Of a DNA stretch of 38,974 nucleotides, positions 1-34,927 are shown piece by piece. The notes under the pieces are model-generated. The model had not been told where the DNA came from, made no database searches, and saw only the letters and a program-made list of their open reading frames with translations. This DNA is from an uncultured Candidatus Saccharibacteria bacterium (GTDB lineage: Bacteria > Patescibacteriota > Minisyncoccia > Phycocordibacterales > UBA1539), in assembly GCA_964430255.1 (NCBI GenBank), contig CAYSEK010000001.1:1-38974 (forward strand). Direction: 5' to 3'. Made by a program: the position numbers and the translations under genes. The stretch's first letter is position 1. Each line of letters begins with the position of its first letter.

Positions 1-25
1 TTGACTAATTTACAGTCAAGCACAA

Positions 26-58
26 GCGGTGATGGATTTATCCATCACCGCTTTTTTT
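26..58 (+). terminator. Intrinsic-terminator-like hairpin + T7
   Basis: 11-bp stem gcggtgatgga/tccatcaccgc, loop ttta, followed by ttttttt. In the partner repeat (3371-3390) the left arm is deleted. Confidence 0.55.
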
Positions 59-96
59 CTTACTCCGGATTTAACTCCGGAGTTAAATATGGAGTT

Positions 97-130
97 AAAA
101 ACAAGAGCCGGCGTAGCCGGCTCTTGTTTT
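97..130. terminator. Bidirectional hairpin terminator downstream of the rpoD fragment
   Basis: Stem aaaaacaagagccggc / gccggctcttgtttt, loop gta, with an A-run before and a T-run after. Near-identical to the terminator at 3423-3455. Confidence 0.6.
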
Positions 131-150
131 GTTTGTAGTTGTTCATCCAC

Positions 151-330
151 CTAGTAATTTTTTAACCTATCGGCCTTATCGTGTACGCGTATCTTCTCAA
201 GCGCTTTAGCTTCTATCTGCCTGATACGCTCTCTTGTAACACCAAACTCACTGCCCACCTCTTCCAGTGTATGCATCACGCCATCAACAAGCCCGTGTCG
301 CATCTCTAATATTTTTCGCTCTTTAAGAGA
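151..330 (-). pseudogene. Orphan 3' fragment of a sigma-70 (rpoD) gene, region 4 only, 59 codons + stop
   Basis: Hand translation: [59 protein letters not shown]. The intact RpoD C-terminus at 3511-3690 differs at 2 residues only (I->V, R->K). An in-frame stop lies 4 codons upstream of the homology boundary and there is no N-terminal part. Confidence 0.85.
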
Positions 331-390
331 ATGAGTGAATCATTCACAAGTGATGTTGTTGTTGCCTATTTTACCCACCACTTTTACGAG

Positions 391-418
391 ATGACAATAA
401 TCAAAATAATAGTATAGT
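391..418 (+). promoter_or_regulatory. Sigma-70-type promoter candidate for the ABC-F gene
   Basis: ATGACA (391-396), 16-nt spacer, TATAGT (413-418). ATG 421 lies 2 nt and ATG 427 lies 8 nt after the -10. No Shine-Dalgarno (SD) is visible. Confidence 0.4.
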
Positions 419-420
419 AT

Positions 421-1980
421 ATGTCTATGCTATCAGTACAGAAAATTACAAAAAAATATGACCACGGAATGATTTTGAATAATATAACCTTCTCACTTTT
501 AAAGGGCGAGAAGGTTGGTCTGGTTGCGCCAAACGGCACAGGTAAATCAACTTTACTTAAGCTTATTGCCGGAGAAGATAAATCAGACAGTGGTTCAATT
601 ATTTTTCAAAAAGGAATTAAAACTGTATACTTCCCGCAAGAAATGTGTACTGATATTTCAGTTTTACAATATCTTGAAAATACAGAAGAAAAAAATGACA
701 ATATCGCAAAATTGTTTAAAAAGGTTAGACTTGAGGATGTCCCATTTAATACCGCCATGAGTAAGCTATCTGGTGGTCAAAGGTCAAAAGTTTCTCTTGT
801 GAAAATATGTCTAACAAAGGCAGATATTTATTTACTTGATGAACCTACAAATAATCTTGATTTTACAACCCTGAGGTTAATGGAGGATTTTGTCGTATCA
901 AGTGGTAGTGCATTTATAATAATTTCCCACGACAGGGAGTTTTTAGACAGAACAGTTAAAAAAACATTTGAAATTGATGAATTTGATCATTCTCTTCGAA
1001 TATACAATGGAGGATACAGTGAGTACTTGAAACAACATGAAGCGCGAATAGTAAGAGAGTGGTCTGAATATGAAGACACCCGAAAGAAAAGTAAAAAGAT
1101 GAAAAAAGCTACTGATAAAAAAGTGGAAGATATCCGAAAGATTAACAAAGAAGTACGGAATAGGAGAAAACTCGCACCAAGTATTACAGACAAAAAAAGT
1201 AGAGCTGCTATCTTGGATCGTGCCGGTAAGATTGCAAGACAAGGTAAGGTAATAAAAAATAGATTGGAGTCGTACAACCTTGATGAAATTGAAAAACCCA
1301 AAAGCAGATTGCCACTTAAACTACACTTTAAAAACATAGAACCAAGTGGGATAAAAGTATTTTCTGTTGCAGGTATAGAGAAAATTACTGGCGATAAACA
1401 TTTGGGTCCAATTGACCTAAATATTCAATATGGAAATAGAGTACTTATACTCGGAGATAATGGAGTGGGGAAAACTACATTTCTTAAGATACTACTCGAG
1501 GAGATAACACCTGACAGTGGAAAAATAGAAAGGGGCACAAAGTTGAGGATAGGATATTTACCGCAAATGACGGGGAATGATCAAGATAATACAGCGTTGT
1601 CATTTTTTGTAAAACACGCACCGAATAAAGAGCAGAGTGATGCCCGTAAAATATTAAATCGATTTAATATTACTGACGAAGATGTAAAGAAAACATTAAG
1701 AGAATTAAGCCCCGGATTGAGGTCACGTCTTGTTCTGGCAACGATGATAGTAAGCGAACCTAACTGTCTTATTCTAGACGAACCTTCAAATCATCTAGAT
1801 CTTGAGGTTCTTGAAAAACTTGAAAACGCACTAATGCAATATACGGGCACTATTATTCTTGTATCGCACGACCGAAGACTTATCAAAAAAATAGACTTTA
1901 CAAAAATATACATTTTGTCAAACAAAGGGGCTTTTGAAGAAATTACGGGCATTGAGGAATGTATTAACGGAACTATGTAG
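421..1980 (+). CDS. ABC-F family ATPase (soluble, two NBDs; translation factor / ribosome-protection type)
   Basis: 519-aa ORF. Walker A GLVAPNGTGKST and ILGDNGVGKTT. Signatures LSGGQRSK and LSPGLRSR. Walker B IYLLDEPTNNLD and CLILDEPSNHLD. H-loops ISHDREF and VSHDRRL. No TM segments, and a ~90-aa K/R-rich linker between the NBDs. The real start may be ATG 427. Confidence 0.9.
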   Translation: MSMLSVQKITKKYDHGMILNNITFSLLKGEKVGLVAPNGTGKSTLLKLIAGEDKSDSGSIIFQKGIKTVYFPQEMCTDISVLQYLENTEEKNDNIAKLFKKVRLEDVPFNTAMSKLSGGQRSKVSLVKICLTKADIYLLDEPTNNLDFTTLRLMEDFVVSSGSAFIIISHDREFLDRTVKKTFEIDEFDHSLRIYNGGYSEYLKQHEARIVREWSEYEDTRKKSKKMKKATDKKVEDIRKINKEVRNRRKLAPSITDKKSRAAILDRAGKIARQGKVIKNRLESYNLDEIEKPKSRLPLKLHFKNIEPSGIKVFSVAGIEKITGDKHLGPIDLNIQYGNRVLILGDNGVGKTTFLKILLEEITPDSGKIERGTKLRIGYLPQMTGNDQDNTALSFFVKHAPNKEQSDARKILNRFNITDEDVKKTLRELSPGLRSRLVLATMIVSEPNCLILDEPSNHLDLEVLEKLENALMQYTGTIILVSHDRRLIKKIDFTKIYILSNKGAFEEITGIEECINGTM

Positions 1981-1987
1981 AATTATT

Positions 1988-2446
1988 TTATTTAAGAATT
2001 ATCTGACTTCCTTTGCTTTTCTTGTATGCTTTTTCTATTTGGCGTTTATTTAGATATAAGTATGATAAATTTGGATCGCAATAATGTCGCCCTGTTCGTA
2101 TTTTTCCACGATGCATCTCAAGAACAATAACAAGAGGAGTTCTGTATATTTCTTTTGTATCTGGGTCAGGATAACTTTCTACCATTTCAATCATCACAAC
2201 ATTTTTACCTTCGGCAATATTCTTAATATCATATTGGCGTCCTTTAATTTCATATATCTCTTCTGTACTTTGTTCATTGTGCATTGTGTCGGTAGGAAAA
2301 AGTTCTTTCCTTTTTGGTGTTTGGTGCACCCATGTCATCGTATAGTCTTTCGTGACTTTCTTAAGAGCGCTTGTGATATCACCGGCAATCTCATCCTTAA
2401 GAATTTTTAGCACCATTTGGACTTGTTTACTGTATTTTTTTTGCAT
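1988..2446 (-). CDS. NTF2-like / SnoaL-like fold small protein (tentative)
   Basis: 152-aa ORF. N-terminal helices (ILKDEIAGDITSALKKVTKDYTMTW) then beta-rich part ending VLEMHRGKIRTGRHYCDP, the pattern typical of SnoaL/NTF2-like cones. Convergent with the ABC-F gene, 7 nt apart. Confidence 0.55.
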   Translation of the reverse strand: MQKKYSKQVQMVLKILKDEIAGDITSALKKVTKDYTMTWVHQTPKRKELFPTDTMHNEQSTEEIYEIKGRQYDIKNIAEGKNVVMIEMVESYPDPDTKEIYRTPLVIVLEMHRGKIRTGRHYCDPNLSYLYLNKRQIEKAYKKSKGSQIILK

Positions 2447-2477
2447 GTTTTAATAATACATTAATATTTGTAAATAA

Positions 2478-2509
2478 AAAACCCTCTTACAAAATAGTAA
2501 GAGGGTTTT
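2478..2509 (-). terminator. Intrinsic terminator after the 223-aa gene
   Basis: 13-bp stem aaaaccctcttac / gtaagagggtttt. On the minus strand it is followed by a T-run (A-run 2474-2480 on plus). Confidence 0.7.
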
Positions 2510-2521
2510 GTGGGTTGATGC

Positions 2522-3193
2522 TTAGCCCACTGCACTTTTCTGCACATCGGAAGCCAAAGTTCCATACCCATTAAAGGCATAATAAACTTCAGTTGATATT
2601 AATGCAGAAGCAAGGAACTTCATCTGAAAGTTATTCCATGCAGTGTAGAGCTTTGCAAACTCAACCTTGAAGTTGTTAACTTGATTCATTTCTACAACTT
2701 CCAGTACGACACCTGCTTGCGCCGCTTTTTGAAGATCAGTAATTTTTTGCTTCAACATCGCGGTTAAATTACTAAGTTCGTGCACGTCATCCTGAAAATC
2801 ACTCAGCACTCCATAAAAAGTACAAGATTTCATTTTTTGTAAAATCTTGTTCCAAGTATCTTCGCTTAGCGCACCTTTTTCGGCAAGAGAAGCACCTATT
2901 GCAGGCAGGTTGATACGATTAAGCGTTGGCAAATCTTGGTATTTTTGAATATCCATTTCTGCACGAAGGTCTTGCATGGTTGCTTGCAGTGTTTGCAAGT
3001 GCTCTGATGACAGATTGAGATGTTTAAGTATATCATCAATATTGCCAATTTCATCATTGAGTTCAATGAGAAGCAAATCTTCAAGTGCAACATTTGCAAG
3101 TTGGAATTCTATAAACGCAAGACTTGCTGCACGAGACATAAGCGTCGAGATTGCCAGATATTTCCGACAAGGTTGATGATTTTGACCACCCAT
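2522..3193 (-). CDS. Hypothetical all-helical cytoplasmic protein, no recognisable family
   Basis: 223-aa ORF. AGGAG (3201-3205) lies 7 nt upstream of the ATG. It has its own terminator. No signal peptide or TM, no catalytic motif recognised. Visibly less AT-rich than its neighbours. Confidence 0.75.
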   Translation of the reverse strand: MGGQNHQPCRKYLAISTLMSRAASLAFIEFQLANVALEDLLLIELNDEIGNIDDILKHLNLSSEHLQTLQATMQDLRAEMDIQKYQDLPTLNRINLPAIGASLAEKGALSEDTWNKILQKMKSCTFYGVLSDFQDDVHELSNLTAMLKQKITDLQKAAQAGVVLEVVEMNQVNNFKVEFAKLYTAWNNFQMKFLASALISTEVYYAFNGYGTLASDVQKSAVG

Positions 3194-3350
3194 AATATTT
3201 CTCCTTTGCTTAAAAGGTAAAGTTGAACAAATTTGTCAATTGAGAATGAACAATCACTCCTAATAACACTATTACATAAAACATAGCAAAAAAACAACCT
3301 AAATTGGTAATGTATGACTACACCTTAAAAAAGAAGTGGATATGGCATTA

Positions 3351-3690
3351 TTGACTAATTTCTTATCCATCACCGCTTTTTTCTTGCTCCATATTAAATT
3401 CGGAGTTTACTCCGAAGCAAACAAAACAAGAGCCGGCTACGCCGGCTCTTGTTTTGTTTAAGTTTAACTACTGCCCCAGTAAAACATTCTACCTTCGGTT
3501 GTTATTTTACCTAGTAATTCCTCAACCTATCAGCCTTATCATGTACGCGTATCTTTTCAAGTGCTTTCGCTTCTATCTGTCTAATCCTCTCCCTTGTAAC
3601 ACCAAACTCACTACCTACCTCCTCAAGTGTATGCATTATACCGTCAACAAGTCCATGTCGCATCTCTAATATCTTTCGCTCTTTTAACGA
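3351..3690. repeat. Right copy of the ~340-bp diverged direct repeat (continuous with intact rpoD)
   Basis: See 1..338. In the 180 coding nt I count 28 differences by hand, affecting 23 codons, of which 21 are synonymous. Confidence 0.85.
3423..3455 (-). terminator. rpoD intrinsic terminator
   Basis: Stem aaaacaagagccggc / gccggctcttgtttt, loop tac, 55 nt downstream of the rpoD stop, T-rich after the stem on the minus strand. Confidence 0.7.
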
Positions 3691-4755
3691 AAGATCATCC
3701 AGTATTTCTTTTATCTGGTCTGAAAGAATCCTTCTTGAAGAATCCTGATCAGGAGAAAGTATTTTATCGTCGGCGATGAACTCTCCAAGAGTTGATTTGT
3801 CATCGTCATCACCGATAGGTTTTTCAAGTGATATGGTATCTTGATCGATCTTTTTAATTATATGGATTTTACTTACATCAAGACCCATCTCAGTAGCTGT
3901 CTCCTCGGGCAATGGCTCTCTACCAAGATCTTGCGCCAATCGCCTCGTTACTTGTTTGTATTTTGAAATAGTCTCAACCATGTGAACAGGAATACGTATT
4001 GTGCGTGATTGATCAGCAAGAGCTCTTGTTATCGCTTGTCTTATCCACCATGTAGCATAAGTTGAGAACTTATACCCTCTTTCCCATTCAAACTTATCTA
4101 CCGCTTTAAACAATCCTAAATTCCCTTCCTGTATAAGGTCAAGAAGTGTTAGGTCAGGACTTCTGCCTGCGTATTTTTTTGCAATTGAAACCACAAGCCT
4201 CAGGTTGGCTCTTGCAAGTAGATTCCTTGCCTCTTCTTCCCCTCTTTCAATTCTCTGAGCTAATTCTTTCTCTTCTTGTGCTACCAGCAGTGGATACTGA
4301 CCTATTTCTTTAAGATACATCTGGATTGAATCATGCCGAGTAGACCCCCTTGAATATGAATATTTTTTAGTTAACACTTCTTCCTCTCCAGCATCCAAAA
4401 GCCCCCCACTATCAAGTACGTCTATTTTATGATCACCAAATTTCGTATACAACACATCTAAAGAGACAATATCATCTTCTATATTTGGAAATTCTTTTAA
4501 AAGCTCATCATATGTTATAAAGCCTCGATCTCGCCCTTTTTTTACAAGAATATTCGCTTTTTCCTCAAAAGATTTTCCTTTTTTACGAGATTTTACAGTT
4601 TTTTTAGATTTAGCAACCTTCTTGACGGCTTTCTTAACAACTTTCTTTACTGTCTTTTTTGTCTTTTTCACAGGTGTTTTTTTAGCCACCTTTTTAACAA
4701 CTTTTTTTGTTTTAACAACTTTCTTTTTTGTTGTTTTTTTTGTACTTTTGGGCAT
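3511..4755 (-). CDS. rpoD: Primary-type RNA polymerase sigma-70 factor with lysine-rich N-terminal tail
   Basis: 414 aa. Region 1.2 [11 protein letters not shown]. Region 2 [37 protein letters not shown]. Region 3 IRIPVHMVE. Region 4.2 [20 protein letters not shown]. The first ~60 residues are K/V/T repeats. Confidence 0.95.
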
Positions 4756-4793: not shown

Positions 4794-6515
4794 TTATTTC
4801 AATTCATTTATTTTTTTTGAAATTTCCTGACATTTTTTCAACGTATCATTTATCAATTCAGTCTCGCCTTTATTCTCAGATATGCGAAGTTTTTCCATTG
4901 CTTCGGCAAGTTCTTCTTTCAGTGTCTCCTCTTCCATGTATTTCATAAGCTCATTGAACTCTTCGTCAATATTTTTCATGTCGCCGTAATAAACTTCTAC
5001 TTCAAAAATAAATTCTTTCTTATCATCTTCGTTCAAATCCTGCATTGTTTTAAAAGCATCTTCGCCAACAATATTTTTGTATTTTTCTTTACATTCTTTA
5101 ATATTTAAAATAGGCTCTTTGACCTCTTCTTGTAAAAAAATTAATCCAAGTATTTTTCTTTCCACCATTTCTTTCCTTGTGCCTTTTGCGCTATTGCTCT
5201 GCGTCACCGGCGGATTCGAGACAGTATCACTTTCGATATTTTTTGAAATGCTACGCAACTCCTCCCATATAGGTTCATCAGATATTCCAAGCTTCCGTGC
5301 AACCTCCGATACAAAATGTGCCTGATTTATTTTGTTCTTCAACCTGGCAATATAAGGCAAGACCATCTCGCCAACCTTAACACGAAAAGCTCTTTGGTCC
5401 ATATCTTTTCTTGAAAGAACATCCAAATAAAAATCAATTATATGCTGCGCGTCTTCTAGAATGTTTCCCCACTTGTCCTTATCTTTTAGAATAAGATCCG
5501 CAGGATCAAGCCCTGATGGCAAAAGAGCAACTCTTACATCAAACCCTAGAGACAATGCGATGTCTACTCCTCTTTTTGAAGCAGACATGCCGGCATCGTC
5601 AGGATCAAACGCAATAATCAAATTATCAGAAAGTCGCTTTATTAAATTCAGATGCTCGCTCGTAATAGCAGTACCCGATACGGCAACAGTATTTTCAAAC
5701 CCTGCTTGATGAGACATCAATATGTCCATTTGCCCTTCTACTAACACGCAAGATCCAGATCTTCTAATGGCCACCTTTGCTTTATCAAATCCATATAATA
5801 TTTTTGATTTATTATACAGACTTGTCTCTGGACTATTTACATATTTTGCTTGCTGTATAGAGTCAGACTTTTCGCCACTTGAATCAAATATCCTACCCGA
5901 AAAACCTACGACTCTCCCTGAGCTATCAAATATTGGAAACATTATCCGAGAGCGAAATCTATCATAATACCCCTTATCTCCTTTTATTGTAAGACCTGCT
6001 TTTTCAATGACAGCCTCACTGTACCCTTTTGTTTTCAAAGAATCATACAATGCGTTCCATTGATCTAACGCATATCCGAGTCTAAATTTCTTCGCGGTTA
6101 TACCAGTCAACCCTCTGTCTTTCAAATATAAGGCTACATCTTTTTGGACTTTTAAATTTTGTTCAAAAAAACGTGTTGCCTCTTCGAGTACGGCGAACAA
6201 TTTTTCTTTCTCTGACGTCTGCGCGCGATCTGTTCTCTTTATTTCAACCCCAGCCTTATCAGCAAGGACCTTGAGTGATCCTGAAAAATCAAGACCTTCT
6301 ATCTCCTGGATAAAACTAAAGATATCGCCACCCTTACTGCACCCAAAACAATGATATGTTTGACGAGATGGTGACACGAAAAATGAGGGTGTTTTTTCAT
6401 TATGGAAAGGGCAGCAAGCTTTAAGATTGCTGCCAGCGTTACCAAGCTTCAGATATGTTCCAATCACCTCCGTGATATCAAGTCTCTCTTTGATTTGTTC
6501 GACAGTAGATGACAT
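4794..6515 (-). CDS. dnaG: DNA primase
   Basis: 573 aa. CHC2 zinc finger [32 protein letters not shown] motifs VLVEGQMD and AFDPDDAG. Confidence 0.95.
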
Positions 6516-6540
6516 ATAACAATGATATTTAATCTATTAT

Positions 6541-6572
6541 CCGAGTAAACCTCCTTTTTGTGGTTTACTCGG
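6541..6572 (-). other. 11-bp-stem hairpin between rpoC and dnaG (function unknown; no U-tract)
   Basis: ccgagtaaacc / ggtttactcgg with a 10-nt loop. Not followed by a T-run on either strand. Confidence 0.4.
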
Positions 6573-6625
6573 CATGTCTTATATATACTCTTTGAACAAG
6601 CATCGCATATTACATGCACAAAAGA

Positions 6626-9600
6626 TTACTCTTCTGTTTTTTCCTCATCTTCACCATCTTTAGATTCATCTTTTCCTCCCTTAAATCCTGTTCCTGCGGG
6701 GATGCGTCTTCCTATTATCACATTTTCCTTTAATCCTCGCAGAGTGTCTACCTTTCCTTTAACAGCTGCATCAATAAGTATACGAGTCGTATTCTCAAAC
6801 GATGCCGCAGACAACCAACTTTTTGTAGTAAGTGCAACATCTGAAATTCCTAAAACAACTGCATCAGCTTGCGCCTCTTCACCTCCCTCATCTTTAACTC
6901 TTTTGTTTTCTTTTACAAACTCTGCATACTCAACAACCTCACCTATAGCAAACTTTGCGTCTCCTATCTCTTTTATTTTTCTTCTGGAGAACATCTGCCT
7001 TATAATCACCTCGATGTGTTTCCTGGCGATAGATGCACCCTGAAGTTCATAAATCTTATTTATTTCATTGATGATGTAATTTTCAGCTCTATCTTTTCCT
7101 CCGTATTTAAACATCTCAGCTATATCTGCAGAACCATCGGTCAACAGGTCACCCTTTTTTATCTTGTCTCCAACTTTTACAAGTGACATTCTTTTTGGAA
7201 GAACATAATGTTCGATTTTTTCATTCTTTTTTGATTTTCCTTCTCCAACATCAGGGAGTACAACTATTTTCTTTCCCTCAGGAGAATCCTCTATCTCAAT
7301 CACTTCTCCGTCCACGCTACTAATAATAGCAGCACTCTTAGGAATACGCCTTTCAAACACTTCTTCAACACGTGGAAGACCTTGTGTAATATCTCCACCT
7401 ACTGAAGCAATACCACCTGCGTGGAACGTCCTCATAGTAAGCTGTGTTCCTGGCTCTCCAATCGCTTGAGCTGCAATAATACCTACAGCCTCTCCAAGCT
7501 TAATAAGCTTGTTTCTACCGGTATCAAGACCGTAACATGTCCTACATACACCATAAGACGATTTACACGTAAGAGGTGAACGAACATATGCTTCTTCAAC
7601 TCCAGCTTCTTCAATCTCTTGTGCGTCTTTTTTGTGCAACAGTGCACCCTTTTTAAAGATAACTTTACCTTTACTATCTACAGCATCTTTGCTCAATATC
7701 CTTCCACGAATATTTTTTGAAATAGGTATTTCAAACCCAACAAGATTTTCGGCAGTAACTCTTTTACCTTCTTTCTCCTTACAATCTTCTTCAGAAATAA
7801 TTGCATCCTGCGCAACATCTACAAGTCTACGTGTAAGATATCCCGCTTTTGCAGTATTAAGCGCTGTATCGGCAAGACCTTTTCGGGAACCATGAGTAGT
7901 AACAAAATATTCTATCGGAGAAAGACCTTCTTTTGAAGATGGGATAATCGGGAAATCGATAGTACGACCTGCTGTGTTCACAATAAGACCTTTCATCCCT
8001 GCCATCTGAACAATCTGCGAGATGGAACCCCTAGCACCAGAATTAAGCATGTCACTAACAGGACCATCTGGGTCTAACGTTGCTGGTATTACTTTTTCTA
8101 TTTCATCTTTTGCCCCCTGCCATACTTCTATTGTCTTTCTGTATCTTTCTTCTTCAGACAAAAGACCTTCTCCAAATTGAGCTGAAACCTCATCTGCTTT
8201 TTCTCTTGCAGCAGCAATAATACCTTTTTTCTCTTTTGGTACACTAACCTCATCAAGTGCCCAAGTAATACCCGACCTTGTAACATATTTATATCCAAAA
8301 TCTTTTATCTTGTCTAAAATTGCCGGAGTTGCATCAAATCCATAATATTCTATCATGTCATTTACTATGCCCGCCAATACTTTCTTATTTATCTCTCCGT
8401 TTATATATGCAAAATCTGAAGGCAAGACACTGTTAAAAAGAAGTCTCCCAACTGTCGTTTCAAAAGGCTTTCCTTCAAATTCTGCATACTTCGGACCATC
8501 CGTAGGAAGCACTTTGATCTTTGTTCTAAATCCAACTATATCAAAATCATAAGCAGTAATCGCATTATTGGGTGAAGGGAAAATTTTTCCCTCACCTTTA
8601 TCGCCATCTATAATCTTTGTCATCCAGTAACATCCAAGAACAATATCAAGTGATGGATTAACGATTGGCTCACCATTTCCAGGACCCAATAGGTTCTTGT
8701 TGGCAGCCATCAGCTCTCCAGCTTCTTTTTGCGCCTCCTTTGAAAGAGGAACATGTACCGCCATCTGGTCTCCGTCGAAGTCCGCGTTAAACGCTGAACA
8801 AACAAGTGGATGAACTTGAATAGCGTTACCCTCGATCAAAATAGGGTTAAACGCCTGAATTCCCAATCTGTGCAAAGTAGGAGCACGGTTAAGTAATACA
8901 TATTTATTTTCTATCACCTCTTCAAGAATAGCCCACACTTCTGGTTCTTTTTCATCAATAAGTTTTCCGGCACCTCTTATGTTGAAAGCTAGTTCTCTGT
9001 CAAGTATTTTTGATATAACAAATGGTCTGAAAAGTTCAAGTGCCATTTTCTTTGGTAGTCCACATTGATTCAATTTCAAAGTTGGACCCACAACAATCAC
9101 AGACCTTCCGGAATAATCAACGCGTTTACCAAGAAGATTCTGCCTGAAAAGACCTTGCTTCCCTTTCAAGGAATCAGCTAGGGACTTAAGAGCTCTTTTC
9201 TGCGCCTGACTCATTACAGTAGACTGTGTTCTTCTTATTGAGTTGTCTATAAGAGAGTCTACAGCTTCTTGCAGAATTCTTTTTTCATTTCGTAAAATAA
9301 CTTCGGGTGCTCCAATGTCTTTCAACTTTTTCAATCTGTTATTTCTGTTTATAACACGCCTATACAGATCATTAACATCTGAAGTCGCATGTCTTCCACC
9401 CTCAAGAGCAACCATCGGACGAAGTGCCGGTGGTGTTATCGGAATCACAGTAAGAAACATCCACTCCGGACGCACACCTGAATTAATAAGCGATTTCACA
9501 AGACTTATTCTTTTCTTGAGTTTAGGTTTTTCAACAGCACTTGCACCGTCAACTTTTGAAATAAGTTCTTCTAAAAGTTTTTCGAGGTTAAGTTTTTTAA

Positions 9601-14547: not shown

Positions 14548-14581
14548 AAAAACACTAGACGTCGGACGTCTAGTGTTTTTA
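14545..14581 (-). terminator. Intrinsic terminator after the first MazF gene
   Basis: Stem acactagacg / cgtctagtgt (14552-14576), loop tcgga, flanked by an A-run and a T-run. Starts at the stop codon. Confidence 0.7.
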
Positions 14582-14911
14582 TAATTTCAACATATTTTTT
14601 AAAATTATATTGATTTTCTTTTGCATCTCTCTGTTTATCCTTCCAACAACCTTTGTAATTCTTGTTTTGTCTACTGCCTTGATATGAAAAATCAGAATTG
14701 CTGATTCTTGTGCAAGATTGTTGTACTTGTCTGGTAAAATTGCCAAAACATAAGGAAACCTTAGTGCTTCAAGATTTGTAGTAAGAGGAATCACTACCGC
14801 AATATCTGTTTTTGTATTTGAAATTAAAACTGCCGGTCTTTCGCCATATTGCTCACGACCGGCACCTTCAGATAAATTTACAATACAAACATCCCCTTTC
14901 TTCATTTTCAT
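14579..14911 (-). CDS. mazF: MazF/PemK-family type II toxin (endoribonuclease), module 1
   Basis: 110 aa. KGDVCIVNL...GREQYGERPAVLIS and IPLTTN core typical of PemK/MazF. ATGA overlap with the upstream antitoxin ORF. Confidence 0.85.
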   Translation of the reverse strand: MKMKKGDVCIVNLSEGAGREQYGERPAVLISNTKTDIAVVIPLTTNLEALRFPYVLAILPDKYNNLAQESAILIFHIKAVDKTRITKVVGRINREMQKKINIILKNMLKL

Positions 14912-15114
14912 ATTCTTTTCTCAAACTCTAAAAGGTCTTTGTTGGATATTTTTTCCCACGCGTTAAGTTCTTTATTTAATTCTCGTTTACCCTGCAAAGA
15001 ACTAGCGTAATATAAAGTCGCATTGATCAAAAAATCTTCCTTTGAAATACCTATTTCACGAGAAGCGATGGATAGCTCTTTTTCTATTTTTTTGGGAATA
15101 GTTATTGTTGCCAT
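14908..15114 (-). CDS. Ribbon-helix-helix-like antitoxin, module 1
   Basis: 68 aa. N-terminal beta strand TITIPKKIEKEL followed by two helices. 4-nt overlap with the toxin gene. Confidence 0.7.
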   Translation of the reverse strand: MATITIPKKIEKELSIASREIGISKEDFLINATLYYASSLQGKRELNKELNAWEKISNKDLLEFEKRI

Positions 15115-15123
15115 AATATATTA

Positions 15124-15151
15124 AGTATAGTCTTAAGCCAAAAATTTGCAA
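15124..15151 (-). promoter_or_regulatory. Promoter of TA module 1
   Basis: Minus strand TTGCAA - 16 nt - TATACT, then 9 nt to the ATG. The -35 overlaps the left arm of the 18-bp hairpin. Confidence 0.5.
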
Positions 15152-15154
15152 AGA

Positions 15155-15247
15155 TAGTGGTCAACGTGGCAGGTTGACCACTATCTTTGCCTTCTCTCCA
15201 CTCCTCTATCTTCTTATAATTTCCTGAGAGGAGCACTTTGGGGACTA
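15155..15247. repeat. Distal copy of a ~90-bp diverged direct repeat (hairpin + trmD 3' end); partner 16029..16118
   Basis: Shared string tagtggtcaacgtggcaggttgaccactatct...tccactcctcta...cctgagag...gggact. In this copy the hairpin stem is extended to 18 perfect bp (15148-15190: gcaaagatagtggtcaac / gttgaccactatctttgc). Confidence 0.85.
15181..15246 (-). pseudogene. Orphan 3' fragment of trmD (about 20 codons)
   Basis: Hand translation VPKVLLSGNYKKIEEWREGK versus the intact TrmD C-terminus VPKVLLSGDHKKIEEWRKGR*. A 2-nt indel puts the stop out of frame. No upstream part is present. Confidence 0.8.
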
Positions 15248-15249
15248 CG

Positions 15250-15346
15250 AGCAAAACCCACCCTAAAAATGCAAGAATCCGCTGGGGGGGGGTGAACGAG
15301 GTCGAACCTCGTTCATTTTCTTGTACATTTTTTGGGGTCAGACCCC
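15250..15346 (+). mobile_element. Possible relic of an IS3-family right end (transposase C-terminus + terminal inverted repeat)
   Basis: The plus-strand frame reads ...RIRWGGVNEVEPRS..., resembling the ...LGGLSPVEYR... transposase tail. It is followed by tgtacattttttggggtcag, resembling IS150-group terminal repeats (..TTTTTGGGGTCAG..). This rests on recollection only and needs an ISfinder search. Confidence 0.3.
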
Positions 15347-15374
15347 TTTGTTTCAGTTTGTACGTTTCCGAGCC

Positions 15375-15716
15375 CTACGTCGTTAGTAAAACATCCCTAA
15401 GTCCATCAAATACTGATTTTAATTGCGAGGTAGAAATATTGCCGATTTTCTTCGTAAGCCTGTCCTGAGAAATCGTTCTAATTTGGAATGTTAAAATTTC
15501 TGAATCTTTTTTTAAACCATTATGTTTTGATTTTAAAAGCACAACACAGGCGGGATACTCTTTTACCTGTCCACTTATTGGACAGACAATACAAATAGGC
15601 ATATTGTCATTCATTGCTCCCGCGGAAATCACTACCACAGGTCTTTTGCCCGCTTGCTCAGACCCCTTCGATGGATTTAAATTAGCCCAGAAAATATCCT
15701 TTTGTTTTATTTTCAT
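15375..15716 (-). CDS. mazF: MazF/PemK-family type II toxin, module 2
   Basis: Start at internal ATG 15716 (MKIKQKDIFWANLNPSKGSEQAGKRPVVVIS...), 1 nt after the antitoxin stop. The longer ORF-track start (15806) would overlap the antitoxin gene. Confidence 0.85.
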   Translation of the reverse strand: MKIKQKDIFWANLNPSKGSEQAGKRPVVVISAGAMNDNMPICIVCPISGQVKEYPACVVLLKSKHNGLKKDSEILTFQIRTISQDRLTKKIGNISTSQLKSVFDGLRDVLLTT

Positions 15717-15717
15717 A

Positions 15718-15957
15718 TTATTTAACAATATCAGAGTAGTCATCCATCCCCCATTCTGCAAATTCCAATGTACCGCTATCAAGCGCAGCCCTTTTAAATC
15801 CATCACGCATTTGTTTTTGCTTCACTTCTTTTTTATACCGCAAAAGCGCATCCTCCAAAACCTCTCGGCGAGTACATTTTACCTTTTTTGCGTATGCGTT
15901 CACCCAATCAATAACCTCAGGTGAGATTGTGCTGGTAAATACTTGGGTTGTTTTCAT
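15718..15957 (-). CDS. Ribbon-helix-helix (CopG/Arc-like) antitoxin, module 2
   Basis: 79 aa. ISPEVIDWVNAYAKKVKCTRREVLEDALLRY fits the RHH beta-alpha-alpha pattern. Acidic C-terminal tail. Immediately upstream of the toxin. Confidence 0.75.
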   Translation of the reverse strand: MKTTQVFTSTISPEVIDWVNAYAKKVKCTRREVLEDALLRYKKEVKQKQMRDGFKRAALDSGTLEFAEWGMDDYSDIVK

Positions 15958-15968
15958 GATAAGTATAT

Positions 15969-15993
15969 TTTATATGTATAATTTATATGTATA
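15969..15993. promoter_or_regulatory. Operator-like 12-bp direct repeat in the TA module 2 leader
   Basis: tttatatgtata at 15969-15980 and 15982-15993, directly downstream of the -10 element. This is the typical position for RHH autorepression. Confidence 0.45.
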
Positions 15994-16020
15994 TAATACC
16001 CAAACACAAAACCATGTCAA
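15993..16020 (-). promoter_or_regulatory. Promoter of TA module 2
   Basis: Minus strand TTGACA - 16 nt - TATTAT (ttgacatggttttgtgtttgggtattat). Confidence 0.6.
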
Positions 16021-16028
16021 CCTTGGTT

Positions 16029-16118
16029 TAGTGGTCAACGTGGCAGGTTGACCACTATCTCCCCTTTCTCCACTCCTCTATTTTCTTATGGTCTCCTGAG
16101 AGAAGAACTTTTGGGACT
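16029..16118. repeat. Proximal copy of the trmD-end direct repeat (continuous with intact trmD)
   Basis: See 15155..15247. The hairpin gtggtcaac-gtggcag-gttgaccac (11-bp stem here) contains the trmD stop codon. Confidence 0.85.
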
Positions 16119-16690
16119 TTATAGTTTTTATTTTTGTACTTAACGACCTCTGGTCGTGTGTACATTTCAGAACTTGATATTCTTTTTTCTTCCAGTGATT
16201 CGCTATGCCCAAGCACTCCGGGAATCTGTCGCGATATTGCGTCCACCACAACCATCGCTGGCACTTCCCCTCCGGTAAGTACGTATGGACCGATAGATAA
16301 CTCCTCCGCCTTTAACACTTTTTTTACTCGCGCGTCTACCCCCTCATAACGTCCAGCTATTAAAATAATATCTTTATATTTTTTTGAAAGTGTCTCTGCG
16401 TAAATATTCGTAAACTGCTTACAGGAAGGTGAGAACATAATTATTTTTACGTTCTTCTTTCTCCCACGCGCTTTCGCAACTGCACGCAATATTGGGTCTG
16501 CCTGCATCACCATTCCCGGACCACCGCCGTATGGACTGTCGTCAACTTTTTTATGTTTATCTTTTGTAAAATCGCGAGGGTTGTAAAATTTTATATTTAT
16601 CAACTTTTTTTTCTGTGCCCGCAGAAGAATAGACTCGTCTGTGTACGAGCGAAACATTTCTGGGAAAATTGTAATAATATGGAATATCAT
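16055..16690 (-). CDS. trmD: tRNA (guanine37-N1)-methyltransferase
   Basis: 211 aa. Motifs DDSPYGGGPGMVM and IAGRYEGVDARV. C-terminal LLSGDHKKIEEWR. Confidence 0.95.
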   Translation of the reverse strand: MIFHIITIFPEMFRSYTDESILLRAQKKKLINIKFYNPRDFTKDKHKKVDDSPYGGGPGMVMQADPILRAVAKARGRKKNVKIIMFSPSCKQFTNIYAETLSKKYKDIILIAGRYEGVDARVKKVLKAEELSIGPYVLTGGEVPAMVVVDAISRQIPGVLGHSESLEEKRISSSEMYTRPEVVKYKNKNYKVPKVLLSGDHKKIEEWRKGR

Positions 16691-18824: not shown

Positions 18825-20054
18825 TTACCACCACTGACAATTTTCCCAGAGGCAGACATTGTCTGCTCCGTCGACTTGAAGAGGATCCGTTCCCCATTCA
18901 CCTTTCCATCCATATGGATCAACACGAGTTCCATCATACTTTTTAACAGTAAAGTGTAGATGCCCATCTCCTGTTTGCCCAATCCAAGAACCTTTTGATA
19001 CGGGTTGACTTGGTTGTCCATCGCCTATAAGTTGAGATGAAAGATGTAGATAGTATGTAGTGTAACCACTTGAATGCACAATCATCATACCGCTGTCATA
19101 TGCATATGCAACACCAGTTGCTGCTGCATAAACACCAACATTATCACCAACAGGATAATCATAGCCAGTGTGTCCATCATAGGACAAGAACAGATTGTTG
19201 CCATTCTTATCAGGCGCATTATACTGCCCATTTATACTAAATGGAACTAATCCATTTTGCGCAAAACCATACAATTTTTCTTTAGGACATGCTGAACTTG
19301 TAATAGTTGAATTCCAGTCAGATATCCCATATTGCAACTCACCTCTTTCTCCGGTATATGCCGTAACAACGTAGTCTGGGCAATTAAACCCCGTACTCAC
19401 GGAATGATCTACAATAGCATTAACCGGCACAGTATACGGCGTATAACCAGCAAGTGGGAACGCAAGGTTCGCACCATCATACGTCACGATGAGCTTTGGT
19501 CTTGCCCAGCGATACGCGAAAGGCAAATCCGAGCTATAAAACTGTGAAAACTGGTTATCCGTACCTGTTGGACGAAAACCAAAACCATAGTTGGGATATG
19601 TGCCAGATTTCCAATCATTGTAAATACTGGTTATATTAAGACCGTACCAGAAACCAAGTATTGGTGCTGAAGCTAGATACAACGACTGTCTACCTAATTG
19701 GTCATACCATCCAGTATTTTCATCCCAATCCTCAACAAGAAGATCCATATACATACTTACAAGTGTTGATGAATCTCCTCGATCATACGGAAGCATCCAC
19801 ATCTCAGCGGAAGTTGGGTTTTGTTGTAAACCAGTAACATCAAACTTGATAAGGAAATTATATTCATCTCCCCATCCACCAGCTTGAAGTTTCCAGTCGT
19901 CAACACCATAATCGTCGCCATAATCGTAATATGACGAAAGCCACACATCCACTCCATCTTCGGGTCCAGGCTCGTATATTACTTGATCCGCTAATGATAA
20001 AGATATAGCAGTAAAGTAAGTTGCAAGTACAAATAAAATATTTCTGATTTTCAT
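18825..20054 (-). CDS. Secreted M23-family (LAS) metallopeptidase with a large N-terminal non-catalytic domain
   Basis: 409 aa. Signal peptide MKIRNILFVLATYFTAISLSLA. HxxxD (DGHTGYDYP) and HxH (GDGHLHF) zinc motifs in the C-terminal third. GAGGTG lies 6 nt upstream of the ATG. The N-terminal ~200 aa is W/Y/D-rich and possibly a carbohydrate-binding beta-sandwich. Confidence 0.85.
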   Translation of the reverse strand: MKIRNILFVLATYFTAISLSLADQVIYEPGPEDGVDVWLSSYYDYGDDYGVDDWKLQAGGWGDEYNFLIKFDVTGLQQNPTSAEMWMLPYDRGDSSTLVSMYMDLLVEDWDENTGWYDQLGRQSLYLASAPILGFWYGLNITSIYNDWKSGTYPNYGFGFRPTGTDNQFSQFYSSDLPFAYRWARPKLIVTYDGANLAFPLAGYTPYTVPVNAIVDHSVSTGFNCPDYVVTAYTGERGELQYGISDWNSTITSSACPKEKLYGFAQNGLVPFSINGQYNAPDKNGNNLFLSYDGHTGYDYPVGDNVGVYAAATGVAYAYDSGMMIVHSSGYTTYYLHLSSQLIGDGQPSQPVSKGSWIGQTGDGHLHFTVKKYDGTRVDPYGWKGEWGTDPLQVDGADNVCLWENCQWW

Positions 20055-20088
20055 CAGTTACACCTCTTTTTTAAGTTTATGAAAGAAC
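20041..20088 (-). repeat. Start-codon + SD + upstream leader module, copy A (partner 34871..34916)
   Basis: tttctgattttcatcagttacacctcttttttaagtttatgaaagaac versus tttctaattttcatcagtcatacctctttttaatttttgaaagaac. Covers codons MKIRN, the SD and ~25 nt upstream. Confidence 0.75.
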
Positions 20089-20249
20089 AAAAGTTGATTG
20101 CTAACCAATCAACTTTGAAATAATAACATATTTTTATTTTTTACAAACTATGGATTACTCTGTAAATTTAAAAGAAAAATCTTTTTATGTTCAATGTCCA
20201 ATATCGAACATAAATATTTACATATTTCTCTAACGCTACATCAGTAAAC

Positions 20250-22688: not shown

Positions 22689-22700
22689 ATTCTACTTTGT

Positions 22701-22751
22701 AAACAAAAACAAACAAACTTGGCTACATGCCAAGTTTTTTTGTTTTTGTTT
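22701..22751 (+). terminator. Very long (23-bp, one mismatch) hairpin terminator
   Basis: aaacaaaaacaaacaaacttggc - tacat - gccaagtttttttgtttttgttt. Confidence 0.7.
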
Positions 22752-22776
22752 ACTTTAAATTATATTAAGCTATACT
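22749..22776 (+). promoter_or_regulatory. rnr promoter candidate placed for a leaderless transcript
   Basis: TTTACT - 16 nt - TATACT - 7 nt (ctcacta) - ATG 22784. No SD. Confidence 0.45.
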
Positions 22777-33902: not shown

Positions 33903-33932
33903 AAAACGGTCGACAATATTGTCGACCGTTTT
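33903..33932. terminator. Bidirectional hairpin terminator
   Basis: 12-bp stem aaaacggtcgac / gtcgaccgtttt around aatatt. Confidence 0.6.
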
Positions 33933-34814: not shown

Positions 34815-34870
34815 AATTACAGATATGTTATCGCGAAACACTGTTTTTGCGAATTTTTTACATAACAAAA

Positions 34871-34927
34871 TTTCTAATTTTCATCAGTCATACCTCTTTT
34901 TAATTTTTGAAAGAACTAATTTACAAG
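34871..34927 (-). repeat. Leader module copy B (composite of A and C) carrying a decapitated MKIRN start
   Basis: Minus strand ...cttgtaaattagttctttcaaaaattaaaaagaggtatgactgATGaaaattagaaattttgttatgTAA. An 8-codon relic ORF whose first 5 codons equal those of the M23 peptidase gene. Confidence 0.75.

Follow-up and report, generated by a model that had tools for sequence, protein, structure and literature searches.

A displaced rpoD 3' end beside an inserted 3-kb block: a probable scar of homology-anchored insertion between sibling Paceibacterota lineages

We describe a block of about 3 kb that lies between two diverged copies of the 3' end of rpoD in the window (the whole stretch of DNA that was analysed, 38,974 nucleotides). 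The site is probably (we would put the probability at roughly 0.58) the scar of a homology-anchored insertion whose DNA came from a sibling lineage within the Paceibacterota (CPR) and which displaced the 3' end of the resident rpoD. The features of the region are the following.

1-8, plus strand: last 8 nt of the gene p85, TAA stop at 6-8 (ORF present in locus L001)
24-53, unstranded: hairpin HP1, left copy, intact; intrinsic terminator of the convergent gene p85 (terminator scan)
98-135, unstranded: hairpin HP2, left copy; bidirectional terminator of rpoD (terminator scan)
151-330, minus strand: displaced rpoD 3' fragment, 59 codons plus stop, reading frame intact; sigma-70 region 4
335-3347, unstranded: inserted block (cargo) between the repeat copies; boundaries from alignment
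391-418, plus strand: promoter-like site ATGACA-16-TATAGT
421-1980, plus strand: ABC-F ATPase, ribosomal-protection-like family (Pfam ABC_tran twice; NCBIfam NF000355)
1988-2446, minus strand: p152, uncharacterised, GRHYCDP motif; conserved partner of p223
2478-2509, minus strand: terminator-like hairpin between p223 and p152 (terminator scan)
2522-3193, minus strand: p223, uncharacterised all-helical protein family; N-terminus MGGQNHQP invariant
3194-3285, minus strand: conserved region upstream of p223 (predicted promoter), 78% nucleotide identity with L105
3348-3382, plus strand: outer end of the right copy, the last ~4 p85 codons and the 3' arm of HP1
3418-3455, unstranded: HP2, right copy, 38 nt, 100% complementary to 98-135; predicted functional terminator of the intact rpoD
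3511-4755, minus strand: intact rpoD, 414 aa, with its final 59 codons and stop (3511-3690) in the right repeat copy

The preliminary description placed a direct repeat at 1-338 and 3351-3690; formal alignment bears this out and refines the boundaries to 1-334 and 3348-3694. Each copy comprises the last codons of p85, two terminator hairpins and, on the minus strand (151-330 and 3511-3690), the end of rpoD, 59 codons and the stop. The blastn alignment joins 38-324 to 3363-3684, and the coding block (138-334 and 3498-3694, 197 nt) is gap-free and 84% identical. The outer end of the repeat lies at window position 1 and about 3348, the inner end at 334 and 3694, and local alignment with shuffles detected no homology past either end. 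Common to both outer ends is attgactaattt, with which p85 ends (4 codons and the stop). This small Cys-rich gene (85 aa), whose body lies to the left of the window and is seen in L001, which extends 363 nt further left, has only 5 homologs and no Pfam match. HP1 is kept 3' of p85 in L084 and L086 and 3' of Nfu_N in L090. In the right copy a 27-nt deletion took its 5' arm and the 3' arm alone remains (3363-3382). The two copies of HP2 are exact reverse complements, that is, the same stem with the loop inverted. HP2 also stands behind rpoD in L090 and L091, where it carries compensatory changes. The right copy has 35 additional nucleotides between HP2 and the rpoD stop.

The coding parts of the two copies differ at 27 nucleotides, 23 of them at third codon positions. 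An earlier hand count had given 28 differences; its other figures hold, with 21 of the 23 changed codons synonymous and two amino-acid changes (I->V, R->K). By the Nei-Gojobori method dN = 0.033 and dS = 1.18 (dN/dS = 0.028), and when the same 27 changes were placed randomly the mean was 17.6 amino-acid changes and the minimum 8 in 200,000 trials (P < 5e-6). Fragment and resident copy are 85% identical at the nucleotide level, and the rpoD genes of sister species are 82-87% identical among themselves. The fragment's variant residues, V and K, are both found in functional RpoD of relatives; an RpoD ending exactly like the fragment's C-terminus was not found among the 120 closest proteins. Because dN/dS is so low and both residues occur in functional proteins, the comparison supports the view, already advanced, that the two copies diverged as alleles, each within a functional rpoD gene of its own lineage. 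No recombination breakpoint is visible inside rpoD, where saturation has been reached at synonymous sites and all relatives stand at about the same distance. The left copy is a dead end, as had been noted, with its frame closed by a TGA 4 codons before the homology. Its 59 codons contain no disabling change, so the displacement would be recent, with very little divergence accrued during the pseudogene stage.

The low dN/dS could also reflect selection on the fragment itself, which holds a 50-aa ATG ORF (151-303, minus strand) that would act as a stand-alone sigma region 4.2 protein and might serve as a decoy that occupies -35 elements or binds anti-sigma or activator partners. This ORF passes the Pfam Sigma70_r4 threshold (45.2 bits vs 24.1), is annotated as a gene in L001 and has a minus-strand promoter-like site at 397-368 directed towards it. 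However, promoter matches are at the level of shuffled controls (17 found vs 12.2 +/- 3.8 expected), the homology reaches 9 codons beyond the ATG on its upstream side, which a passive fragment would be expected to show, and the 81 other loci lack such a piece near rpoD, hence there is no evolutionary persistence to explain; we regard a functional fragment as very unlikely.

Comparison with relatives supports the block as inserted into a site whose ancestral order was p85 -> hairpin <- rpoD, because L086 has that site empty (p85 -> hairpin <- rpoD <- dnaG). The preliminary description had proposed a search for empty sites, and fragment and cargo are absent at rpoD in relatives: the cargo does not occur in the rpoD neighbourhoods of 80 relatives, and each of the 81 other loci has one match to the rpoD C-terminus, with no second fragment near rpoD. 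The gap downstream of rpoD is a hotspot; the interval between rpoD and sufB is different in each close relative, with sufB 319 nt beyond rpoD in L006, a methyltransferase in L091, an Nfu_N gene in L090 and another gene in L088.

Both junctions are found, 100% identical, in three independent assemblies, namely the 38,974-bp contig, VAPK010680088.1 and a Logan contig of SRR14803398 (a conservative assembly, covering 291-3447); a mis-join is therefore unlikely. A chimera joining contigs of two co-occurring sibling species is the least probable of the explanations considered here. Sibling species do occur in the same samples (L095 and L105 are from the same metagenome as L001), the window, which is the whole contig, starts at the repeat boundary, and Logan contigs break within the 38-nt HP2 palindrome, but both junctions lie in unique sequence rather than in a shared k-mer and are identical in all three assemblies.

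The cargo genes are the three described earlier, the ABC-F ATPase, p152 and p223. The ABC-F protein scores 398.7 bits against NF000355 (cut-off 380), and its orthologs (69-77% identity) are found near dnaJ and an acyltransferase, or adjoining an aminoacyl-tRNA synthetase with a p152 remnant. The promoter-like site ends 2 nt before the start codon, which suggests a leaderless mRNA, and the -10 region is kept in the L097 ortholog. Profile searches gave no family match for p152; its weak PDB matches to the NTF2 superfamily (E about 0.4) and a low-confidence alpha+beta model indicate that it possibly has an NTF2-like fold. The p223 family comprises 206 clusters at E <= 1e-3, with no relatives in PDB, Pfam, PHROG or PADLOC. 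The two genes p223 and p152 form a conserved pair across many contexts, and in the close relative L105 the gene upstream of p223 is not rpoD. Viral, phage and plasmid collections contain no relatives of the cargo, which is ordinary chromosomal DNA of the clade that stands in other contexts elsewhere. A search of the cargo for an integrase, transposase or relaxase agrees with the earlier claim that there is none. The large ORFs in the rest of the 39-kb window likewise yielded no such gene, and in L001 the further 363 nt before position 1 hold p85 and no recombinase.

Four further genes show this layout: trmD in this window, rpoD of L064, rpoC of L076 and a primase-like gene of L103. For trmD, where it had already been reported, a 92-nt duplication and an associated cargo were found:

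15155-15246, minus strand: displaced trmD 3' fragment with terminator hairpin, about 21 codons, stop lost via a 2-nt indel
15247-16028, minus strand: trmD-site cargo, a MazF/PemK-type toxin (15375-15806) and an upstream small ORF (15718-15957)
16029-16118, minus strand: terminator hairpin and 3' end of the intact trmD (gene 16055-16690)

The duplication at rpoD in L064 is 45 nt long, with a diversity-generating retroelement as cargo, and that at rpoC in L076 is 135 nt long, with a PPDK_N/PEP-utilizer gene as cargo. At the primase-like gene in L103 there are three copies, one of the cargos being p152-p223 itself, and the hairpin stems of these copies differ at paired positions, mostly in a compensatory manner as judged by eye. 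Over the five cases the length of the duplication ranges from 45 to about 340 nt, and the duplicated piece is always the 3' end plus terminator of the intact gene that adjoins the cargo. The independent insertions at rpoD differ in their boundary, at codon -60 here and at codon -14 in L064. No integrase was found in the cargo of the four further examples, where scanned.

The preliminary description read the rpoD repeat as an att-like site of a CIME-like element. This reading is not supported, because no recombinase was found in the cargo or in the window's large ORFs, the boundaries of the two rpoD insertions are unlike, the duplication length is variable and the cargo genes are chromosomal elsewhere in relatives. 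In its fuller form it would make the site what is left of an e14/icd- or CIME-type element that integrated site-specifically at a core near codon -60, with an attP that carried a replacement rpoD 3' end and an integrase that has since been lost or is encoded elsewhere in the genome and acts in trans; we consider this improbable. The site of e14 at icd/icdC has exactly this layout (PMC13626634), the relatives are polymorphic for presence and absence, and an identical stretch of 16 nt plus 11 nt (GTCGCATCTCTAATAT.TTTCGCTCTTT) at the inner boundary could be a core, but identical stretches of similar length also occur elsewhere in the repeat. Moreover, the repeat takes in 160 intergenic nucleotides and the terminal part of the neighbouring gene, and in this it resembles a piece of a relative's chromosome rather than an attP.

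The homology-anchored insertion that we favour would have begun in a donor lineage where p223-p152-ABC-F was by then the immediate downstream neighbour of rpoD and HP2, the block having replaced nearly all of the convergent p85 and left its last ~4 codons and half of HP1. Homology-facilitated illegitimate recombination in laboratory systems usually yields insertion with deletion; the duplication at the rpoD site would arise only because the donor carries its own copy of the target. Donor DNA may have entered the recipient lineage by natural transformation, natural competence having been shown in Patescibacteria (PMC10633639); in the 39 kb covered, no competence or RecA genes of this organism were seen. 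The donor DNA would have found its homologous anchor in the recipient's rpoD, and its non-homologous far end, upstream of ABC-F, would have been joined illegitimately at codon -60 of the recipient rpoD. The recipient would thus have kept an intact rpoD, with a 3' end and terminator now derived from the donor, and gained the 3-kb block, while its own last 59 codons, HP2, HP1 and p85 were displaced 3.4 kb downstream, the rpoD piece as a dead-end fragment. No dedicated recombinase would be necessary. None of the sequences searched showed the proposed donor arrangement, rpoD-HP2-p85 tail-p223-p152-ABC-F with no left fragment.

The polarity could also be the reverse, with the left piece (p85-hairpins-rpoD') as the incoming DNA. 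The cargo genes would then already have stood beside rpoD, and DNA with suf genes, p85, hairpins and 60 codons' worth of a foreign rpoD 3' end, anchored on the suf/p85 side, would have been joined illegitimately upstream of ABC-F, the fragment being the donor's ragged end. The two-lineage evidence serves this explanation equally, the synteny p85-sufBD-sufS seen in L084 would offer a long conserved anchor, and the decayed p85 tail in the right copy implies that the cargo has been beside this rpoD for some time. Yet the donor fragment must end inside rpoD by chance, the left flank is covered over 363 nt only, and it is left unexplained why all five cases duplicate the 3' end plus terminator of the intact gene adjoining the cargo; we therefore hold the reverse polarity to be unlikely.

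Campbell-type single crossover of a circularised fragment, using the same ~345-bp homology, would give an identical product, and this alternative, raised in the preliminary description, is kept as a viable variant of homology-anchored insertion, ranked slightly below linear, one-sided insertion. Campbell-type insertion-duplication involves a circular donor, needs only RecA-type recombination and, as at the rpoD site, leaves the homology segment directly duplicated on both sides of the insert; its two junctions should be of one age. Here the non-functional parts of the right copy have decayed (of p85 the tail alone is left, and the 5' arm of HP1 is deleted) while its rpoD and HP2 are intact, whereas the left fragment is undecayed. 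The two junctions thus differ in apparent age, an argument drawn from one 27-nt deletion, which hints at a two-step linear route.

Several known systems share parts of this organisation. The CIMEs and ICESt1-ICESt3 at the 3' end of fda in Streptococcus thermophilus, like tRNA/tmRNA islands, have short, near-identical att repeats (tens of bp) and a known integrase family. As at the rpoD site, an integrase-less block can lie between direct repeats that include a gene 3' end, but here the repeat is about 345 bp long, 75-85% identical and without a known cognate integrase. Prophage e14 and phage 21 occupy the 3' end of icd in E. coli and leave the icdC pseudogene, according to PMC13626634, which cites Hill et al. 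1989. Both sites consist of an intact gene, inserted DNA and a displaced C-terminal fragment, with a replacement 3' end whose differences are mostly conservative. In contrast to the rpoD site, e14 encodes a site-specific recombinase of its own and is excised at a defined core, whereas here the repeat reaches through intergenic terminators into the next gene and boundaries vary between independent insertions. Successive C-terminal displacement arrays (Rhs tips, CDI orphans and the Vibrio cholerae T6SS effector-immunity arrays) have been attributed to homology-facilitated illegitimate recombination (PMC5361080 and references there). There too, incoming DNA brings a common upstream part, a new 3' end and extra genes, and the old 3' end is moved downstream and retained as an orphan; repeated rounds give arrays (compare L103), no integrase is involved and the copies come from different lineages. 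In those arrays a variable toxin tip is displaced and the gene product is diversified, whereas here the protein is unchanged, the targets (rpoD, trmD, rpoC) are essential, highly conserved housekeeping genes, the terminator lies within the duplicated unit and the cargo bears no relation to its target.

The accessory genes beside rpoD are bracketed by a diverged direct repeat of ~345 bp (1-334 versus 3348-3694, 75-85% identical). Each copy consists, in minus strand order, of the last 59 codons and stop of rpoD, a strong hairpin (HP2), a second hairpin (HP1) and the last few codons of the convergent gene p85. The repeat spans 160 nt of intergenic DNA and reaches into the neighbouring gene, the first 8 nt of the window being the end of p85 as judged from the contig VAPK010680088.1 (L001), which extends further left. 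Local alignment against shuffled controls detects no significant homology beyond either end of the repeat. The features of the region are the following:

L001 114-371, left of the window: p85 (also in L084, L086 and L087)
24-53: HP1, second hairpin
98-135 and 3418-3455: HP2, strong G+C-rich terminator hairpin
151-330, minus strand: displaced left rpoD fragment
421-1980: ABC-F ATPase (NCBIfam NF000355; Pfam ABC_tran, twice)
1988-2446: p152, with GRHYCDP motif
2522-3193: p223, member of a helical family
3511-4755, minus strand: intact rpoD, 414 aa

The right copy lacks the 5' arm of HP1 owing to a 27-nt deletion and has 35 extra nucleotides between HP2 and the rpoD stop codon. The two HP2 copies (98-135 and 3418-3455) are perfect reverse complements over 38 nt, that is, they share the stem and differ by inversion of the 3-nt loop (GTA versus TAC); the loop orientation of the right copy also occurs in the relatives L084 and L090. 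The N-terminus of the intact RpoD (residues 1-60, window 4575-4755) is a lysine-rich low-complexity extension of ~60 residues, the length of which differs among close relatives (proteins of 404-463 aa).

The 180 coding nucleotides shared by the two rpoD copies contain 27 differences, 23 of them at third codon positions. They fall in 23 codons, 21 of which still encode the same amino acid, leaving two amino acid changes (I->V and R->K). The resulting estimates are dN 0.033, dS 1.18 and dN/dS 0.028. When the same changes were scattered at random, the mean number of amino acid changes was 17.6 and it never fell below 8 in 200,000 trials. Both variant residues are present in functional RpoD proteins of close relatives. 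Identity of the left fragment is 85% with the resident copy and 82-87% with three sister species, distances that equal those among the three sister species themselves. The substitution pattern and the sister-species-like distance show that the copies diverged as parts of functional rpoD genes in different lineages; they also exclude an in situ duplication. The left fragment has had almost no time for decay. A functional mini-sigma ORF (151-303, a 50-aa sigma region-4 protein) is a very improbable reading of this fragment. Upstream of the point where homology ends, an in-frame TGA is reached after 4 codons. The preliminary description had recognized the repeat and had proposed that its copies diverged in different lineages before being joined; alignment bears out both points, refines the ends of the repeat and leaves the counts of synonymous codons and amino acid changes as they were, only the number of nucleotide differences being corrected from 28. 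As to the donor, the exact C-terminus of the fragment is absent from the 120 closest RpoD proteins. When identity is followed along rpoD in a sliding comparison with three relatives, no step shows up; this comparison has no power to detect a mosaic breakpoint because synonymous sites are saturated (the relatives are all 78-88% identical).

The window is one whole contig of 38,974 bp, and two further assemblies are 100% identical to it across the junctions, namely L001, which runs from 363 nt left of the window to 4104, and a Logan contig of SRR14803398 (L002), which covers 291-3447. Since both junctions are located in unique sequence, a chimeric join is unlikely, and we give an assembly chimera very little weight as an explanation of the structure.

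Related genomes provide a view of the site in other states. In the relative L086, p85 faces rpoD directly across one hairpin and dnaG adjoins rpoD on its other side, with neither cargo nor rpoD fragment, which is the empty site that had been sought. The relative L084 carries sufS-sufBD-p85 and then both hairpins. In L006 sufB is found 319 nt after rpoD, in L091 (RpoD 94% identical) a methyltransferase separates rpoD from sufBD, in L090 (RpoD 93%) HP2 and HP1 are followed by a convergent Nfu_N gene, and L088/L089 (RpoD 96%) have yet another downstream gene. These states indicate that HP2 is rpoD's own terminator, that HP1 is the terminator of whichever gene converges on rpoD, and that the rpoD-sufB gap is a hotspot of gene turnover. 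The cargo, p85 and a second rpoD fragment are all absent from 80 Paceibacterota rpoD loci in GTDB. In L084, where p85 is 74% identical, what comes after HP2 (3100-3152), up to the point where the contig runs out, is not the 3' end of rpoD; the hotspot may be occupied in yet another way here. The p85 gene itself is an 85-aa Cys-rich ORF with only 5 homologs and no family assignment. It lies between the suf operon and rpoD, a place that in L090 belongs to the Nfu_N-domain gene; this is a hint that its role may be connected with Fe-S or metals.

The first cargo gene encodes an ABC-F protein with two ABC domains and a linker but no membrane domain, scoring 398.7 bits against the 380 cut-off of NCBIfam NF000355 (ribosomal protection-like ABC-F). 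By this profile match it belongs to the ribosomal-protection-like ATPase family, and a resistance function is putative. A promoter-like site ends 2 nt upstream of its ATG. Upstream of that site, just inside the left end of the cargo, lies a perfect 6-1-6 palindrome, GTGAATCATTCAC (343-355), which could be an operator but has no conserved counterpart in the ABC-F orthologs that were compared. The orthologs are 69-77% identical, the same divergence as seen for DnaG; they are found near dnaJ and an acyltransferase in three relatives, and in a fourth the gene adjoins an aminoacyl-tRNA synthetase gene with a p152 remnant alongside. In L095/L096 an 861-aa gene with an Rph_4th domain, related to the PPDK_N/PEP-utilizer gene of L076 described below, is inserted upstream of the ABC-F gene together with MFS and MarR genes. 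The other two cargo proteins have no convincing match among Pfam, PHROG or PADLOC families. The p223 family is uncharacterised, helical and ~220 aa long with an invariant N-terminus MGGQNHQP, and comprises 206 clusters at 50% identity among 1.84 billion representatives; p152 has the GRHYCDP motif and only weak similarity to the NTF2 superfamily. The two form a conserved and usually adjacent pair in many contexts (loci L099-L112), tending to variable regions. In a close relative from the same metagenome (L105), p223 and a conserved ~90-nt upstream region are found behind a different gene. Judging from these relatives, the cargo genes are not foreign to the clade. A viral, plasmid or phage origin was rejected, as neither p223 nor p152 has relatives on viral contigs and p152 has none in plasmid or phage collections.

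The preliminary description had pointed to the same layout at trmD (region 15148-16118; trmD at 16055-16690), and a repeat is indeed present there: a 92-nt unit consisting of a 29-nt hairpin, identical in both copies, and the last ~21 trmD codons occurs at 15155-15246 and 16029-16118 with 88% identity. Between the two copies lie a MazF/PemK-type toxin gene and a small ORF upstream of it, and the displaced trmD fragment has lost its stop codon via a 2-nt indel. In relatives trmD is found directly beside rpoB or beside bacA. Right after the trmD fragment the window has a second PemK/MazF-like toxin (14579-14911) overlapping a small upstream ORF (14908-15114), then a 33-nt near-perfect palindrome (14548-14580) and bacA; the trmD-rpoB interval thus holds two tandem toxin cassettes here and none in the relatives L088 and L091. 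Elsewhere in the window there are a 60-nt direct repeat (83%; 20033-20091 versus 34862-34919) with copies 14.8 kb apart and two long palindromes, 22699-22753 (55 nt, 87%) and 33903-33932 (30 nt, 100%), which are probably terminators.

Self-comparison of 90 loci (1.44 Mb), with a second pass over loci added later, yielded three further cases. In L064 (CAZFSV010000001.1, 10175-13886) a complete diversity-generating retroelement follows rpoD, comprising a target gene with a variable C-terminus, a template repeat, a bAvd-like protein and a reverse transcriptase. The final ~45 nt of rpoD recur, almost unchanged, at the end of the insert, with the boundary at codon -14 counted back from the 3' end; the reverse-transcriptase ORF reads in frame into the copied last 14 rpoD codons. 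In L076 (5090-7371) the final 27 nt of rpoC and its terminator make up a 135-nt repeat that brackets a 696-aa PPDK_N/PEP-utilizer gene of a family resembling rifampicin-phosphotransferase/PEP synthase enzymes; a PemK toxin gene follows it. The third case, L103 (JGI Ga0187857_10004153), comes from a GC-rich contig that also encodes a T4SS pilin; its positions 6485-9592 read as a CHC2 primase-like gene and hairpin, p152-p223, a diverged primase 3' end and hairpin, a DUF3768 gene and a third copy. By eye, the hairpin stems differ between these copies at paired positions, mostly in a compensatory manner. All five cases have a sharp inner boundary, at which homology stops abruptly, and the cargo, where scanned, contains no integrase; the length of the duplication ranges from 45 to ~345 nt. 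Direct repeats in other p223-bearing or rpoD loci (L104, L107, L109, L006, L028, L038, L052 and L066) were considered and set aside: none is a displaced 3' end, and they represent repeats in promoters or intergenic DNA, duplicated 5' ends, paralogs, or the variable/template repeat pairs that belong to diversity-generating retroelements.

If a site-specific att site were involved, one would expect to find a recombinase, a crossover core at a constant position and repeats that do not exceed the attP homology. The structure at rpoD resembles attL/attR in that direct repeats including the target gene 3' end flank the cargo, but they are ~345 bp long and 75-85% identical. Profile searches (Pfam, PHROGs, NCBIfam, PADLOC) find no recombinase in the cargo, in line with the original remark that no integrase, transposase or relaxase lies between the repeats. 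The rest of the 39-kb window holds core genes, with no recombinase among its large ORFs, and the 363 nt available left of position 1, where a recombinase had been suggested as worth looking for, contain only p85. No tRNA, tmRNA or known RNA that could serve as integration target occurs in the window or the key loci. The crossover position is not fixed, the rpoD boundary lying at codon -60 here versus codon -14 in L064, and no end motifs shared by the rpoD and trmD cargos were seen by eye. A recombinase hidden in p152 or p223 was considered, with negative results from HMM libraries and negative or weak ones from PDB profile searches; single-sequence AlphaFold models of the two proteins were too poor for a fold search (pLDDT 54 and 45). 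An integron gene cassette was rejected, as no IntI integrase was found in the cargo or among the large ORFs of the window and the hairpins, in place of attC sites, are G+C-rich stems with T-runs, conserved as rpoD/p85 terminators in relatives. Since the repeat also takes in 160 nt of intergenic DNA and part of the next gene, it resembles a stretch of a relative's chromosome. Of the overall interpretation in the preliminary description, the joining of two lineages with insertion of the cargo has held, on the evidence of dN/dS and the empty site, and the att-like integrative element is not supported, given the missing recombinase, the differing rpoD boundaries, the variable duplication lengths (45 to ~345 nt) and the extension of the repeat beyond the gene. 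The same absence of a recombinase from the cargo, the large ORFs and the 363 nt to the left, and the same shift of the boundary, make a decayed or trans-mobilised site-specific element rather unlikely, even though the repeats flank the cargo and include the rpoD 3' end as such an element would leave them.

We favor homology-anchored displacement, by a linear or a Campbell-type route, with a probability of about 0.58 for the two together. In such an event the conserved gene would serve as the homologous anchor and the far end would be joined illegitimately; along with its version of the 3' end the donor would deliver the terminator and the genes beyond it, and the 3' end of the recipient would be displaced. 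The order of intact gene, foreign DNA and displaced 3' fragment at rpoD, together with the empty site in L086, fits C-terminal displacement of this kind. A Campbell-type single crossover of a circular fragment would give the same product, and one homology segment is directly duplicated on both sides of the insert, as insertion-duplication of that type requires. Under homology-anchored displacement a history of two steps is suggested, an older one in which the cargo would have replaced p85 in the donor lineage and a recent transfer from that lineage into this one, because the useless parts of the right copy (p85 tail and HP1) have decayed, rpoD and HP2 are intact and the left fragment is pristine. 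In a Campbell-type event both junctions would arise together; the evidence on their relative age, a right copy that has lost all but 4 p85 codons and the HP1 5' arm beside an undecayed left fragment, depends on a single deletion. The reverse polarity, with the left piece incoming, is improbable in our estimate; as regards the native copy, the fragment lies at the same distance from the resident copy as from three relatives, and comparing the hairpins gives a mixed picture. Sister species co-occur in the same samples, and natural competence has been shown for Saccharibacteria/Patescibacteria (PMC10633639).

Two unrelated structures with a displaced 3' end carry the p223-p152 pair as cargo, one at rpoD in this window and one at the primase-like gene beside the T4SS pilin gene in L103. 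It is a long shot that the pair is more than passive cargo and belongs to a novel mobility or capture system, working without an integrase, that would insert downstream of conserved genes and supply a replacement 3' end and terminator, or that such terminal displacement is a systematic accretion of cassettes on housekeeping genes of Patescibacteria. The trmD insertion in the window could then have been made in trans by this system.

Recombination between species-level lineages has thus reached an essential gene, that of the primary sigma factor, in an uncultivated CPR bacterium and left a datable scar. The same type of scar, a gene 3' end and terminator duplicated around accessory genes, is found at rpoD, rpoC, trmD and a primase-like gene, always free of an integrase, with cargoes that include an ABC-F ribosomal-protection-like ATPase, a MazF/PemK-type toxin cassette, a diversity-generating retroelement and a PEP-utilizer-like enzyme. 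If general, such scars would provide a simple sequence signature of homology-anchored gene gain in reduced, naturally competent genomes with few classical mobile elements, and would mark the sites of accessory-gene addition in Patescibacteria. The kind of event is already known and no new molecular machine is revealed; the main significance is the recurrence of the scar at essential genes in reduced genomes. The closest look-alike, e14 at icd-icdC in E. coli (PMC13626634), has an integrase, but none was found here. A homology anchor combined with an illegitimate joint is the mechanism proposed for the displacement arrays of Rhs, CDI and T6SS loci (PMC5361080), and that proposal fits the features observed at rpoD.
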